Notes under the pieces: generated by a model
Told to the model about the DNA's origin: nothing
Databases searched by the model: none
Seen by the model: only the letters and a program-made list of their open reading frames with translations
Source: Candidatus Omnitrophota bacterium
GTDB taxonomy: Bacteria; Omnitrophota; Gorgyraeia; Tantalellales; Tantalellaceae
Assembly (NCBI GenBank): GCA_014728045.1
Contig: WJMH01000006.1
Span: 52,738-116,737, forward strand
Reading direction: 5' to 3'
Length of the DNA stretch: 64,000 nt
In this document: positions 49,526 to 61,500 of the stretch, one piece after another
Numbering within the stretch: position 1 is the stretch's first letter
How the letters are laid out: each line of letters begins with the position of its first letter
Made by a program: the position numbers and the translations under genes

Positions 49526-52500
49526 TTAGAGCGACCTGAGTATCTCATCCTGAGCAGCCTTCCAGTCGCGAATCTGCTCGTAATCAACAGGCCGTATCCT
49601 CAGTTCTACCAGGCCATCCAGGATCTTATCCAGTATATCCGGGTCCTTATCAAGATCTATCGCGGAGGGATCGGTTACCAGCGCCTTGATCAGGGCAACT
49701 AGGCGTTTCTCAGCTTCCGGGGTGAACAGGTCCGTCTGCTTGAACCTTTCATAATTCAAAAGGGCTTTACCCAGCACAACATGCATGACCTCGTCCACCG
49801 CCCCGTCATCGGGTATACCTCCCACCCTCACGACGACTACCCTTTCTGCCAGGCCTTCAAGCTCCATATCCCTGAGGGTCTCATCCAGAAGGTCCTCCAC
49901 CAGTGAATAGCGTTCCGCCGGAGCGTATATTATGGCCCTCGGCATTTTGTCCGAGTACTCCGGACGTGTCATGTTCTCAAGGAACTTTTCGAAAACTTCT
50001 CTGAGATTGGCTTTAAGCGCCCGGTCGGTCATATCCGCCCGGTAGGCATATCCGTCAGTGATGGTCTCCGAACCGTATTTTCTGCGGAAGAGCCTGGCGG
50101 CGCTACTGTCTACCGAAGGCTTTGCCGACATCATCATACGTTCATTGGCCGGGGTCACTATCCAGTCGACGACCCCCGCGAAAAAGTCCTCGACAGCATC
50201 TTTCGCGGCATTGATCTGGGCCTTTCCTGAACGGGCGTTTTCGCCTACAGCTTCCATGTCCTGCCGGGAATAAACTTCTGTGAAGCCATGTGCGGCTTCC
50301 TGTGAAAGACTGAGATTATGAAGAAGAAGGATGTATTCAGCGGCGACAGTATCCGGGATGATGCCGTATTCCATATCATCGAATGAACGTACGTTCACAA
50401 GGTCCACCCTGAAAGCCCTCTGGGCATCTTCAGTTACAACGAACTGCCCCAGGTGCATATCACCGGCGATCATCCCGTGTGTGTGCAGGGTTTTAAGCGT
50501 CCGCCCCACCGCTCTTCCAAGTTCCGCAAGACGCGCCTTCTCTCCGGAGTCCTGGAGGTCCAAAAGGCGCTTCTGTGCATTATTGCCTATCCAATCCGAC
50601 ATGAAAGGTATAAGAGAAGTATAAAGAAGCGTCCTGAATTCATCCCGGTCCGCGCCGAGTTCGGAAGCGGCACGATCATAATCTCCCAGATCGTTCAGTT
50701 CAACAAGCTCGAAAAGCCCCTCTTCAGCGCCTCTTCTGAGAAGGCTTATCGTCCCGGCTGGAAGCTCTTCCTCGCTCTTGCGTTCTATGTTAGGGCCTCT
50801 TTTCCACATGGTGGTCATCGGCAGATAAACCTTTCTTACCGGCGGGACCACCATCGTGCCATCTGGATTACGCAGGCGTAAAAGCTCCAGGTAGTTCCTT
50901 ATGATCCTCTCATCGGGCGCGATACCTCTCATATGGACGGCCTCCTGCTCATATTCCATCGGGTACCCGCGCCCCAGGATCATCGCGCTGAATGGTTCAG
51001 TAATTATAGGCGAGACGGCGCCTTCTGCGGGTACGGCCGTTATGGCTTCTTCAGGAGGACCGCGTCGTTCTTCGACCTTCGCAAGGTACGAACCAAGACT
51101 CTTCATGAAAAGCTCCGAAAATGGCATAAGAGCGGGCATCATCTCCTCGGTCGTCCCGGAAAAACTGACACCCATCGGATAAAGCACGTTCCGGAACCCT
51201 CCTCTATAATTGAAATCGGAGAAGATCCCAGCCATCGCCTGCGGATCCTTCCGTTCGATCGGGCTGTAATGGTCGTAGACCTCCTTCAAAAGTTCAATAC
51301 CCTGACCTTCCGCCAGGTCGGGATTCTCGGCCACGGCCTCAAAGATAAAATGATTGTTCTCAGGTTCTCCGCCGATAGTGGGTTTACCGGTCTCGTCCTC
51401 GGTCTTCTCAAATAATCCGTACTGTGCCATTAAAGTGGCGAGAAAGATCATTTTATGCCTTGCCCTAGCTCCTTTTTTCTCTATATTTTCCGCGGCTTTA
51501 CCTGTAACATGAAGCCTCCGGTTGCCTATATCCACCATTACCACTTCGCCGTTATCCCGCACCACAAAGTTGCCGCCGTGTATATCAAGAGGTACGTACC
51601 CGTTAAGTCCTACCGCTATGGAAAGAAGCACCTCCACTATTTTCTTTCTCATGTTCAGCGTAAGCTTCCCTTCCCTGGCAAGCTGGGTGGCGGTCTTGCC
51701 CTCGATGAATTCTTCAGTGAACCACTTTTTACCGTTCCATGTCCTGGTCGCGCCGAACCGTGGCACTACCTGTTCCCGGCCCTCCTGAAGCTGGTCGAGT
51801 TCCCTTATCTCCGTGAACGCTATATCACCTACAAGCTTTTCGGTCTTTGTAGCAACGGCCATAGTATAGGTCCGGGCCTTGTCCGGAGAAGAGAATTCTA
51901 TCCTGAAAACATGTTTATTGCTTCCCTCCAGATGATCGGTGATATAAACATCCTTGCCGATATCCCCGAAATCGAGATTCTCGTTCCCGGAGATCTTCCT
52001 TAACTCGTCCACTAGTTTATTCCTGGTAAGGCCTTCCAGATAATCTTTGGCCATCATCGCCAGGTCCATGTATCTTTCCATTTCCTCGGGGGTCTGCGTG
52101 TCGGGATCGGCACCGGTTATCAATACATTCATCTCAGCGCCTACATAACGGCCCCTGTAAAGATCTGCCACATCTTCCATATCCAGCCTTATCAGGTCGC
52201 CCTCACCCTGCCTGAGCATGAAGGACCTCTCCTGTCCGGTCCCGACCCGGTAGCATATGACTATCCTGTCATCGGCGCCGGTACTATCGCGCCTGTAGCG
52301 TATGAAATCCCTCAGGCCTCTTGCGGCAAGCTCCGGGTCCATATCCTGGGCTTCCCACGCCTCAGATGGCACCCTTTCTTTGAGTATGCTGGCGATCTGC
52401 TCCGTCTTGATCTTTTCGGTGAGAGCCCTGTCCATAAATGGAAAGACCTCCCTCTGAAAAGCCCTTAGAAGGTAATGGGGGTTCGCCGGGTCTTTCATTG

Positions 52501-58500: not shown

Positions 58501-61500
58501 GGGAAATGCGCCTGACTTCCTCCAGACGGCGTATATCCTCACCGGTCTTCTCAAGACCAAAGACCAAATGCGTGCCCATGGGTGATATCATGTTCTGATA
58601 ACCAGGCAGAACCTCTCTTGAGCCTGCTTCTTCTGGAAGAGGTATGGTCCTTTCCTCCCCGGCGATCAATATATCAACGGTCCTTTGGGGTTTCTCCGCG
58701 GGGGCCCCGGAGGTCGGCTTGGCGGGAAGTCGCCGGGTGACCTCTTTTATAACCGCTCTCTGACACGCCGTATACAGGACCAGCAGGAACAGACCGGAAG
58801 CGAATACCGGTCTGTACCTCCGCCCCAGCCAACCGATGAACCTCTCAGCCAGAGCGGCAACGGATCCAGCGTCTTTCAGTCTTGACAGGTTATTGCTGAA
58901 CCATGCTTCGGACAATCCCCTATCCGGCTCTCCCGTGCCGGGATCGCGCCCGACCGAGTTGAAAACAGCGTACCTCGCCGCACCGGAAGTGTTCCTGTCA
59001 AGAAGAGGAACGTCATAACCGGACAGTTTCTTCTCAAGGCTCTCCCACTCGTTTCCTATATCCTCAAGGTTTTCCGGGGCCAGAGGTCTTCCACGTCGGG
59101 TCAGTGAGTCGATCGTATCCGCCGCGGCCTCATTCAGCTGTAGGGAGCTTTCTGCGACGGGTTTGCTTATATTCTTTGTGATCCCGGAGGCTGAGGAGTT
59201 CAGCATCTCTACCCTTCGCCATGTCCCGTGGCTTATGCTCTTATAAAAGACCATGTCCCTGCCGTTATATCTTCCGACGATAAAAATCCTGTCTTCACCA
59301 TCTTCGGGCACGCCCCTGAACGCGTCACGTATTATCATGTAACCATTGAGATGCGCCCATATCCTGGCAAGGAACGACGGATCGAGATCGACTATCACCT
59401 TGGAAGGTATGATCTGCTGGGCGTTGAAGTTCTCCGAACGATAATTACCGTATATCCTGTAGAAATATTTCCTGAACTTTAATATTTCCCGGGCGTCCAG
59501 CCTCTCGTCCAGTTCTCCCTCTATGACGGATGCAATGGTCCTGAGATAGTCCAGGATAAGCTTTTTGGTATCCCTGCCTTCATTGGCAGCCACTCTGAAA
59601 TCACTGAAAAAATCACTGTCAAAATGCTTGCGATAGAACCTGTCGAACCCGCCTTCCTTCTGAACCGCCCTTGCAATGAACTGCGGGTTGGTCTCAAGGA
59701 CTTCGCGCAGATCGACCCGGAACTTGCTGGCCAGGTCCTGTTGCAGGTTGAGATCTATCCATTGGTCGAAATTGAACGGCCCCGGCAGGGCAAGGTCCCC
59801 TCTGCCAAGGAAAAACCCCAATGACTCCGCGAAAATGGAGGCCATGTTGATCACAAGGACATAACCCAAGAGTATGCTGCTCAAAGCGAACGGTCCCATG
59901 CTGGAGTAGGACAAAATGATCCCAGCAATCGAACTTGCGGCAATATTACCCAGAAGACCTCCGAAACGAACGAAAACCGGAGGAGCCCTCCCGGTCCTCA
60001 CCTGGCCGGTATAGAACACCCCCAAAAGGTCCCAGTCCACGAACGCCCCGCTCAGTTTCGCGGCGGTGATATGCCCAAGTTCATGGAAAGGCGTCGAGAA
60101 AACGGACAGGACCCTTACTATCGTATTGAGCCAGGGTGCATCCCTTCTTAGAGCATTGGCCAGTAGTGAATTGGACGGAAGTTCGGTGGTTTCCGAACCG
60201 ACTATGTCCCCGAGCCCTCTGGGCGGGTTCACAGCAGGCGGTTCGCCGAAAAAGTCGGCAGCCTCCCGAGCAACATTCTGGCTGGTAAGATCTACCGTCT
60301 CCGCCCCGGTGCTCACACTTTCGGGCCCGAGATCGATAGTGCTCGCTACCTTCACGGCGCCGCTGGTTGCACTATCAGCGGGCGGACTCCTTCCACGAAG
60401 GGACTTCTGCGTGCGAATCTTTTTGGTGGACGACGTTATCCTGCTGACCGCCGTACCCGCCTCGTTTATCCCGTCCTCGTTCTCGAGCAAAAGCATGGCG
60501 ATGAATTTTTCGAGCTCCGATGATTCCCGGGAATGCGCCCGGCTCTTACCCAAAAGCCGTATCGTTTCGCTGGTCGACCTTCTTTCCTTCTTATCCACCC
60601 ATTCGGCATACTTTTGGTTTTCGAACAGCTGGTTCATGTTCTCTTCTTCTTCATCGGTCCTGTGCTGGGGAAGCTTGCCATCATGCAGCATCTGGTAAAG
60701 GATAACCCCTATGGCATAAAGATCGGTTTTGGCGTTGTATTTCACGTCCTGTCCGTGAACAAAGAAGTTCCTGAGAACATTATTCGGCATATACTCGGGA
60801 GTTCCCGTAAGGGTTTCTGTCGACAAAACTCCCTGAGGAGTAAAACGTGAGATGCCGAAATCAGCTATCCTGAGCCGGCCGTTCACATAGAAAATATTCT
60901 CAGGCTTAAGGTCAGCATGGATGATGCCTTTCTTGTGGATAGCTCTTATCGAGCTTAGAAGTTGTCCGGCGATATCGTATACCTCTTCCTCGGCAAAAAG
61001 CTCATCACGCACCCCCACGCGTTTTTCCGCCTGACGGGTCTGGATCATCGTGCCCAGGTCACCGCCATCGGCGTACTGCATGGCAATGAAATAATATCTT
61101 TCGCCATTATGCTCATAATATCCTGCCTCATAAGGCCTTATAACCCCGGGGACGTCTTCAAGACGTTTCATCATGAGGTATTCCTGCAGGAAATTTATCA
61201 CCGCCGAAGGAGAGCTGCCCGGCTTCAGGATCTTGATCGCTATGTCCCGTTCTTTAAGTCTTCCTTCCGTGACTTTGGCCCGGAAAGCTGCCCCGAAACC
61301 GCCTTTCCCGAGAAGACTTTCCAAGCGGAAAGTGTTCGCGCCCCGGGCTTTTCCTCCCATTATCGTATCGGGTATGACCATGGTCTTGCCGCCGAGCTTG
61401 ATCGCTCGAGCCCTTGGTTTTTTCATGCGTATGTTCCGCTTCGGAAAAAGCTCTTTCCATCTGGGGTTCTTGATCATCCTCCTGTTATCAGATTCGGCAT

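Follow-up and report, generated by a model that had tools for sequence, protein, structure and literature searches.

The window analyzed here is a stretch of 64,000 nucleotides (nt) from a Candidatus Omnitrophota bacterium (assembly GCA_014728045.1, contig WJMH01000006.1, positions 52,738-116,737 of the forward strand), the minus strand of which encodes most of a giant protein in which two canonical Ser/Thr kinases share one chain with three divergent kinase-like modules. The minus-strand frame from nt 64000 to nt 49526 is free of stops in translation, with 4,824 codons followed by a stop codon. In the amino acid (aa) numbering of the window used throughout, residue p starts at nt 64000-3(p-1), the first full codon being at nt 64000; adding 188 gives the numbering of the database protein MBD3425871.1 (P0004; 5,012 aa), which NCBI lists, on a 128-kb contig, as 'MAG: protein kinase [Candidatus Omnitrophica bacterium]', where MAG is a metagenome-assembled genome. 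The translation matches residues 189-5012 of this protein at 100%, and the 188 N-terminal residues that fall outside the window, taken from P0004, open with the hydrophobic leader MKIRFVEKYKLLKKAVALVVILAFFNNFILSDAWA. Another Omnitrophota MAG (L001) holds a relative of the giant protein that is 69% identical, and an orthologue fragment (P0005; 3,345 aa, 61% identical) spans the C-terminal 2,800 residues. Because the matching database protein and these separate orthologues exist, the gene is real, very long and a single coding unit; a gene fusion or assembly artefact is ruled out by a full-length protein and 61-69% identical orthologues that were found independently. The open reading frame (ORF) and the five modules, including two Hanks Ser/Thr kinases (STK1 and STK2), are as follows:

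49526-64000, minus strand: giant ORF, 5′ end cut by the window, 4,824 aa present.
60467-61345, minus strand: STK1, canonical non-RD (HAD) Hanks Ser/Thr kinase, aa 886-1178.
54176-55048, minus strand: APH3-type module, divergent kinase-like, aa 2985-3275 (core 3011-3181).
53219-54037, minus strand: STK2, canonical non-RD (HCD) Hanks Ser/Thr kinase, aa 3322-3594.
51041-52045, minus strand: APH1-type module, divergent kinase-like, aa 3986-4320.
50219-50998, minus strand: APH2-type module, divergent kinase-like, directly after the APH1-type module, aa 4335-4594.

An earlier note on this DNA had proposed five kinase-fold modules in one polypeptide, and this proposal is borne out by the single ORF, by matches to Pfam Pkinase and by the profile comparisons described below. 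The range given for them, 50359-61333, lies inside the giant ORF, but the last module runs to about nt 50219 and the gene continues past the window end at nt 64000. The Gly-rich loop, AxK Lys, HxDxKxxN and DFG motifs ascribed to STK1 and STK2 were all recovered in one minus-strand frame, which also contains the catalytic-loop strings DIHGGNF of the APH1-type module (first residue aa 4139, first base nt 51586), DMHLGQF of the APH2-type module (aa 4514, nt 50461) and DLKGSNF of the APH3-type module (aa 3157, nt 54532). We consider it highly probable that this one protein holds five kinase-like modules, three of which represent new families.

The canonical pair is straightforward. STK1 carries GKGGFG (first residue aa 898, nt 61309), AIKIL (921), HADLKPEN (1028) and IADFG (1045), together with the αC Glu and TPEY; STK2 carries GAGGFG (3335), AVKVL (3354), HCDIKPNN (3455), ITDFG (3472) and TPGY. 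With the giant protein scanned in tiles, STK1 (aa ~892-1175) matches Pfam Pkinase (PF00069; gathering score 31.7 bits) in two overlapping tiles at 105.9 and 116.3 bits (E = 3e-30 and 2e-33) and STK2 (aa ~3328-3555) at 140 bits (E = 1.2e-40), and the PknB-type model of NCBIfam matches them at E = 3e-29 and 1.8e-35, respectively. Each of the two therefore combines a profile score above the gathering score with a complete motif set: both are ordinary Hanks Ser/Thr kinases of the non-RD kind, lack none of the catalytic motifs and are predicted to be active.

The other three modules belong to families that we delineated by a full HMMER search of 1.84 billion cluster representatives (50% identity), with aa 2985-3300 joined to aa 3985-4630 as the query. 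This search returned 115 proteins at E ≤ 1e-3, 94 of them at E ≤ 1e-10, and the matches split into three non-overlapping query ranges, giving single-pass families of 80 (APH1-type), 35 (APH2-type) and 10 (APH3-type) proteins. Word-index homologue searches were too insensitive, yielding three matches for the APH1+APH2 segment, none for the APH3 segment and one for the APH2-type profile. Iterated jackhmmer on the 117 proteins collected merged the APH1, APH3 and STK families and was not relied on, because so small a database invites drift of the profile. Judged by their profiles, the three segments are the founding examples of three recurrent kinase-like domain families that are unannotated in Pfam and NCBIfam.

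For comparison by hhalign, 11 Hanks domains taken from this set of giant proteins were aligned and set against the single-pass family alignments. The APH1-type family aligns with the Hanks kinases over 142 columns that span Gly loop through DFG (probability 95.3, P = 2e-8), the APH3-type family does so over 152 columns (94.4, P = 9.4e-8), and these two families align with each other over 166 columns (97.0, P = 8e-11). The APH2-type family aligns with the APH1-type family over 75 columns, from hinge to DFG (88.6, P = 3e-6), and with the Hanks kinases over 59 columns (70, P = 4e-5); its comparison with the APH3-type family is not significant (7.9, P = 4e-3, 37 columns). Repetition with slightly different alignments gave probability 97.6 and P = 4e-12 for APH3- against APH1-type and 87.5 and P = 3.6e-6 for APH2- against APH1-type, and none of the 12 controls with reversed alignments fell below P = 0.21. 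Searched against the PDB, the APH1-type profile finds CDKL3 (E = 1.1e-3) and then LIMK1, STK24, CDPK2, APH(3') and ULK3, with kinase folds in 16 of 20 matches; the APH3-type profile finds the kinase domain of LanKC (E = 4.7e-3) and then PknB, Cdc7, YabT, RSK, CK2, PknG and YopO; and the APH2-type profile has Bud32/TP53RK as its top five (E = 5e-4 to 1.7e-3), aligned through the C-terminal helices, followed by Snf1 and others. The PDB matches are almost exclusively kinases, and their alignments span hinge, catalytic loop and DFG. When the four family hidden Markov models (HMMs) were run over all 5,012 residues, weak secondary matches were confined to the hinge-to-DFG cores of other kinase modules, mainly at the catalytic loops, with one at the Gly-loop region of the APH1-type module. 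A sixth kinase module was rejected, the family HMMs matching only the known ones.

None of the three segments thus lacks a kinase-fold match: at the profile level each matches kinases, in the correct register. We are confident that the APH1- and APH3-type segments, and reasonably confident that the APH2-type segment, are homologous to the protein-kinase-like (PKL) superfamily. By their profiles, the APH1- and APH3-type families are mutually related and closest to Hanks-type kinases, and the APH2-type family is closest to Bud32/TP53RK and WaaY.

Several observations weigh against this assignment. The best profile E-values against the PDB are borderline (5e-4 to 5e-3), no member of the three families reaches any Pfam gathering score, and the APH2-type module provides the weakest link to kinases, with hhalign probabilities of 70-88% over the hinge-to-DFG stretch only. 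AlphaFold2 models are of low confidence, with a predicted local distance difference test score of 37.8 for the DLKGSNF segment (single sequence) and 36.8 for DIHGGNF plus DMHLGQF (4-sequence alignment); Foldseek comparison of these models with the PDB gave a best E of 0.1, and its kinase/APH(2'')-leaning top lists were not used as evidence. Because both models are unusable, the fold of the divergent modules is predicted from sequence profiles only. Together with a single-sequence phmmer search of the PDB that returned nothing significant for the APH1-type segment, the unusable models and the scores below curated thresholds count in favor of a rival reading, in which the three segments would not be kinase folds at all and their Dx(H/K)xxN-like strings would have arisen by chance in a very long protein. 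We regard this reading as very improbable and largely refuted, given that profile-profile comparison yields P values between 1e-5 and 1e-12 over 59-174 columns with the motifs in the correct order, the behavior of the reversed controls, PDB matches that are nearly all kinases and HMM cross-matches that fall only on other kinase modules.

Kinase homology and membership in a curated family are separate matters. When the kinase HMMs suggested in the earlier note (Pkinase, APH, ABC1 and Kdo) were applied, both STKs passed, but the three divergent segments reached no cut-off. APH (PF01636; cut-off 23.2 bits) has no match at E ≤ 10 for the three segments and none at E ≤ 0.01 among 57 family members. 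ABC1 (PF03109; cut-off 22.9 bits) scores 21.2 bits with the APH1-type module, which also has weak UbiB and RfaY matches in NCBIfam, and 15.2 bits with the APH3-type module, for which it is the sole curated match; at E ≤ 0.01 it matches 3 of 23 APH1-type members, all below threshold, and 1 of 10 APH3-type members. The APH2-type module scores 18.7 bits against WaaY (PF06176; cut-off 20.3 bits), which matches 7 of 24 members of the family below threshold (best E = 1.4e-4), and in NCBIfam it matches RfaY at E = 1.4e-4 and the Bud32 models far below their cut-offs. All of these weak matches to ABC1, WaaY, UbiB, RfaY and Bud32 fall on the catalytic loop, a suggestive pattern that stops short of proof. 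The ABC1/UbiB family is recognized by a KxGQ motif and by an Ala-rich loop that replaces the Gly-rich loop, and the UbiB-type catalytic loop reads HADPHPGN; among APH1-type sequences K.GQ occurs in 3 of 33, unconserved, and the AA[SA] loop is absent. The description 'APH/ABC1-like' consequently does not stand as a statement of family membership, and none of the three modules belongs to the APH, ABC1 or WaaY/Kdo (PF06176, PF06293) families. The APH2-type module is, to judge from its matches, a small Bud32/WaaY-like module, and its match to Bud32/TP53RK is to be read as resemblance only; as to a Kae1/KEOPS partner, neither the giant protein nor its flanks showed a Kae1-like domain or gene.

The three families differ in the catalytic residues that they keep. 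The APH1-type module contains EGSNKHV (Gly loop), AVATK, the αC Glu, FTEEFIEG, PLDIHGGNF and MVDIG, and G42, K45, V47, K68, E80, D155, H157 and N160 (family-alignment numbering) are invariant in 23 sequences. Over the 33 family sequences, the Gly-loop Gly, the Gly-loop Lys and the β3 Lys are present in all, the αC Glu is invariant, the catalytic loop has Asp in 32, His in 31 and Asn in 32, and the DFG equivalent has Asp in 32 and Gly in 33, such that all five catalytic residues are kept in 31-33 of the 33. Between P0004 and P0005 this is also the best-conserved module (73% identity), followed by STK2 (67%), the APH2-type module (65%), the APH3-type module (54%) and, for comparison, one linker (48%).

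The APH3-type module contains VGRGDFNSV (Gly loop), FSLRLL (with Arg at the β3 Lys position), DLKGSNF and IVDAG, with G39, R61, D173, N178 and D192 invariant in 10 sequences. GxG is present in the family, Arg occupies the β3 position in 10 of 11, the αC Glu is mostly present, the catalytic loop has Asp (10/10), Lys (9) and Asn (10/11), and the Asp of the DFG equivalent is found in 10 of 10. It is likely but not certain that Arg61 is the equivalent of the β3 Lys, as this rests on the STK-anchored alignment. An alignment of the APH3- and APH1-type profiles displaces the β3 strand by ~6 residues relative to the STK-anchored alignment. A separate point against our overall reading of this module is the β2 Lys, which is found in 9 of 11 sequences, the giant protein and its orthologue having Asn in its place. 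In the APH2-type module the motifs are LGRGYPMEY (Gly loop), VHMRG (β3 Arg), GDMHLGQF (Gln for Asn) and RVDLVN. Its family, counted over 31 sequences, has the Gly-loop Gly in 29, β3 Arg in 24 and Lys in 6 (Arg in the giant protein), catalytic-loop Asp in 30, His in 27 and Gln in 28, and an Arg-x-Asp-Leu equivalent of DFG with Asp in 30. The claim that the three modules show no clear Gly-rich loop was therefore overstated, as each has a partial one, and the claim that they keep only the catalytic-loop motif does not fit the APH1-type module, in which the β3 Lys, the αC Glu, the catalytic-loop Asp and Asn and the DFG-type Asp are all retained.

By sequence, pseudokinases are defined by the lack of at least one of the β3 Lys, catalytic Asp and DFG Asp (PMC12599244; bioRxiv 10.1101/2025.01.12.632604). 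Applied to the β3 Lys, with Arg in 10 of 11 APH3-type and 24 of 31 APH2-type sequences and Lys in 33 of 33 APH1-type sequences, this definition divides the modules, and the suggestion that some of them may be pseudokinases is supported, two of the three divergent modules lacking the β3 Lys. The APH3- and APH2-type modules qualify as pseudokinases on this definition, or else are atypical nucleotide binders. The APH1-type module falls outside it, its alignment being complete where the others show β3 Arg and, for the APH2-type module, Gln for Asn; because all catalytic residues are kept, we predict that it is a working phosphotransferase of unspecified substrate. Natural families with a β3 Lys-to-Arg change that possibly still bind ATP include ActPs2, DYD, KSR1 and EphB6 (PMC12599244). 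The APH3- and APH2-type families keep both Asp residues and a positive charge at β3, which suggests that they can still bind nucleotide; the same has been proposed for ActPs2, DYD and KSR1.

The same residues admit the main rival reading, in which each of the three divergent modules would be a functional atypical kinase (for example a small-molecule, sugar or lipid kinase akin to WaaY/WaaP, Kdo kinase, APH or UbiB) with a substrate of its own, an additional enzyme in a multi-enzyme chain without pseudokinase regulation. In all three families the catalytic Asp and the metal-binding Asp vary little or not at all, the β3 position is always Arg or Lys, the sub-threshold Pfam and NCBIfam matches go to small-molecule kinases (ABC1/UbiB, WaaY/RfaY), the modules are found as stand-alone proteins too, and Omnitrophota giants have been reported as multi-enzyme clusters that include a 'kinase/phosphotransferase cluster' (bioRxiv 10.64898/2026.06.07.730766). 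We nevertheless consider this reading rather unlikely. Gln in place of the catalytic-loop Asn, as in the APH2-type family, is unusual for an active enzyme; Bud32/TP53RK, the closest solved relatives of that family, act mainly as regulatory ATPases; and no substrate-related domain or flanking gene suggests a sugar or lipid pathway. Moreover, replacement of the β3 Lys by Arg classically abolishes activity and is a defining trait of pseudokinase families (PMC12599244).

At the other extreme, all three divergent modules, the APH1-type included, might be dead scaffolds, that is, decayed Hanks duplicates that hold the protein together or bind partners. Their strong divergence fits this idea: Pfam Pkinase matches 3 of 23 APH1-type members, all below threshold, and the identity of the APH3-type module between orthologues is barely above that of the linker, the latter also counting against our own assignment. 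Decayed duplicates would, however, be expected to lose the catalytic and DFG-type Asp that are kept in all three families; the APH1-type module retains its five catalytic residues almost without exception and is the most conserved module; and the age and spread of the families are such that each numbers 10-80 representatives at <50% identity. We judge this reading to be improbable.

Hydropathy peaks of the giant protein cluster at aa 686-809, 1346-1399 (around HELGH), 1733-1751, 1937-1955 and 2850-2941. STK1 sits between membrane clusters. Past aa 2941 there is no membrane-type segment, the lone later peak (aa 3353-3371, at the 1.5 threshold) lying inside STK2, and the soluble C-terminal 1,880 aa hold the APH3-type module, STK2, the APH1-type module and the APH2-type module. 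Building on the gene, its modules, their kinase homology and the conservation of their residues, which we consider established, we favor with moderate confidence the reading that this is a membrane-anchored, multi-domain protein with five kinase-like modules, among them regulatory pseudokinase-like partners, in a cytoplasmic array. In such an array, STK1, STK2 and the APH1-type module would be catalytically active, and the APH2- and APH3-type modules would bind nucleotide and act in cis as regulatory pseudokinase-like partners, the APH3-type module with STK2, from which it is separated by 44-47 aa, and the APH2-type module with its APH1-type neighbor. All modules would face the cytoplasm and together form a cis-linked phospho-signaling array that controls other regions of the chain or proteins that partner with it. 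The regulatory pairing is the tentative part of this proposal, possible rather than probable, and the cytoplasmic placement of all five modules presupposes an even number of membrane passes from STK1 to aa 2941, a parity that the hydropathy peaks leave ambiguous.

Between the kinase modules lie segments with resemblance to peptidases (together nt 55178-60133, minus strand; aa 1290-2941):

59852-60133, minus strand: M50B-like membrane segment with HELGH, aa 1290-1383; Pfam Peptidase_M50B at E = 2e-4 and 21.5 bits against a cut-off of 26, a weak assignment.
56426-56698, minus strand: transglutaminase-like (DUF553) module with CRHMG, aa 2435-2525; 22.0 bits, above the cut-off of 20.5.
55178-55519, minus strand: CPBP/Rce1-like hydrophobic segment, aa 2828-2941; Pfam Rce1-like at E = 0.34, only suggestive.

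Among these only DUF553 passes its Pfam cut-off, and the intramembrane protease partners invoked for the kinases were weakly founded, the M50B-like and Rce1-like matches both being insufficient. The CPBP/Rce1-like segment closes the series of membrane clusters and is followed by the soluble tail, and EExxxR, FxxxH and HxxxN can be seen in it by eye. Two further HExxH motifs, HEASH at aa 1914 and HEISH at aa 2181, also lie between kinase modules and have no family match. One could speculate that the peptidase-like modules (M50B-like, transglutaminase-like, CPBP-like and the two HExxH) cut a membrane-anchored precursor, releasing or activating kinase/pseudokinase pairs drawn from the three new kinase-like families in a polyprotein-like signaling machine in which at least one family is active on a new substrate class; we give this idea little credence.

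The three families are found chiefly in giant proteins of Omnitrophota and now and then as stand-alone proteins, and most carriers are 1,000-7,700 aa long. A phylum-level name was obtained for 8 of the 20 carriers looked up, of which seven are Candidatus Omnitrophota and one is Pseudomonadota. The latter (P0081; 378 aa) is a stand-alone APH1-type protein from a MAG so labelled; it may be that the APH1-type family reaches past Omnitrophota, or else that the bin carries a wrong label. Because a complete stand-alone APH2-type gene exists (P0032; 266 aa, L002 2248-3048, on a 110-kb contig of genome GCA_030154765.1), that family is not limited to giant proteins. The gene adjoins a Mu-like transposase and a cluster of CheB, a PAS histidine kinase and a response regulator. 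In the giant protein, a short conserved stretch, VVDWIVTP...MMMSAKP, lies just past the APH2-type module (nt 50111-50218, minus strand; aa ~4595-4630), and it is found alone in other giants (P0093 3598-3651, P0039 1369-1415 and P0063 557-624). Similar multi-kinase arrays are present in other giant proteins: at least two kinase modules occur in 19 of the 117 collected proteins, for example as STK-STK-APH3-APH3-APH1 (P0008), four STK plus APH1 (P0027) and APH3-STK-APH1-like (P0093).

Published accounts of Omnitrophota giants describe multi-enzyme and transmembrane-anchored classes, including the 'kinase/phosphotransferase cluster' (bioRxiv 10.64898/2026.06.07.730766), and two preprints name histidine-kinase-like ATPases and ROK kinases (bioRxiv 10.1101/2023.11.21.568195; 10.64898/2026.06.07.730766). 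Ser/Thr protein kinases are unmentioned in the 2026 preprint, which contains no PF00069, 'Pkinase' or 'threonine' (bioRxiv 10.64898/2026.06.07.730766), and in the 2023 preprint 'kinase' appears only in pyruvate-phosphate dikinase and histidine-kinase-like ATPase domains (bioRxiv 10.1101/2023.11.21.568195). The bacterial STK atlas, searched by term, names neither 'tandem' nor 'two kinase domains' nor Omnitrophota.

The genes flanking the giant ORF are of a housekeeping nature: aldo/keto reductase, GH1, FabG, FabF, acyl-CoA dehydrogenase, electron-transfer flavoprotein (ETF) and SMC. There is no PP2C phosphatase or FHA protein among them. A minus-strand fatty-acid/electron-transfer cluster (35786-41401) encodes FabG, FabF, acyl-CoA dehydrogenase and an ETF-alpha fused to a 2x[4Fe-4S] ferredoxin domain, and it is followed by the SMC gene (31797-35399). 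A second giant ORF (15371-30331, minus strand; 4,986 aa) is more than 90% without family match, its sole Pfam matches being HATPase_c (aa 2045-2164) and RsbW/SpoIIAB-type HATPase_c_2 (aa 4359-4475). No sequence similarity was found between it and the kinase giant, and a C-terminal domain common to both was rejected. Many ORFs of 150-330 aa on the plus strand inside the giant gene (50933-62941; e.g., 60962-61945 and 56228-56938) are interpreted as mere shadow ORFs opposite this long frame.

The protein had already been deposited under the label 'protein kinase'; new are the recognition of three kinase-like families that lack annotation and the finding that they are arranged as arrays. If the profile assignments hold, three recurrent families with at least 115 cluster representatives (50% identity), invisible to Pfam and NCBIfam, join the PKL superfamily. 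One of them would keep the full catalytic set, and the two β3-Arg families, with both catalytic Asp, would be useful tests of what defines a pseudokinase. Omnitrophota giants can carry up to five kinase-like modules, which points to Ser/Thr-type phospho-signaling inside mega-proteins, and defined fragments of this giant protein are now available for expression and assay. The bacterial kinase repertoire is modestly extended, and no new category of biology is opened.

Comparison with known systems places the modules at varying distances from characterized kinases. With PknB-like Hanks kinases (PF00069), STK1 and STK2 share the motifs and an above-threshold profile, and the APH1- and APH3-type profiles align from Gly loop to DFG; unlike that group, STK1 and STK2 are non-RD and lie inside a 5,012-aa multi-pass membrane protein with no nearby PASTA, FHA or PP2C partner, and the divergent modules stay below the PF00069 threshold. 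ABC1/UbiB/COQ8 proteins resemble the APH1-type module in its Asp-x-His-x-x-Asn loop, and ABC1 is its best Pfam match, but this match is below cut-off, the KxGQ motif and Ala-rich loop are not conserved, and the PDB profile search finds eukaryotic protein kinases rather than COQ8. The likeness of the APH2-type module to Bud32/TP53RK (KEOPS) and WaaY/RfaY lies in the top five PDB matches, which cover the hinge through the catalytic loop, the DFG equivalent and the C-terminal helices, and in the comparable size of stand-alone members (~266 aa). The APH2-type family differs in having Gln for the catalytic-loop Asn, mostly Arg for the β3 Lys and an N-lobe insertion of ~80 aa, without KEOPS or lipopolysaccharide gene context and with curated thresholds unmet. 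Bacterial ActPs2 and DYD and eukaryotic KSR1 and EphB6 (PMC12599244) similarly have a conserved Arg for the VAIK Lys and possible nucleotide binding; ActPs2 also lacks the HRD Asp and DFG, whereas the APH2- and APH3-type families keep both Asp and occur in another phylum and another architecture.

For the arrangement of the modules, the closest parallels are tandem kinase-pseudokinase proteins (JAK JH2-JH1; plant WTK1/Yr15, PMC6170490), in which a kinase and a pseudokinase-like module adjoin in one chain, as do the APH3-type module and STK2, and the APH1- and APH2-type modules, with APH3-STK adjacency recurring in P0093 and P0008. In contrast to JAK and the plant tandem kinases, the giant protein is bacterial, its five modules come from four PKL families and occupy a span of 3,700 residues in which membrane and peptidase-like segments lie between them, and a regulatory interaction is putative. 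As a whole it resembles the giant multi-enzyme proteins of Omnitrophota (bioRxiv 10.1101/2023.11.21.568195; 10.64898/2026.06.07.730766), which belong to the same phylum and are likewise long, multi-pass, membrane-anchored chains of many unrelated domains with a large share of sequence that has no Pfam match; the kinase giant, which has an N-terminal hydrophobic leader, stands with its 5,012 aa at the short end of this class.

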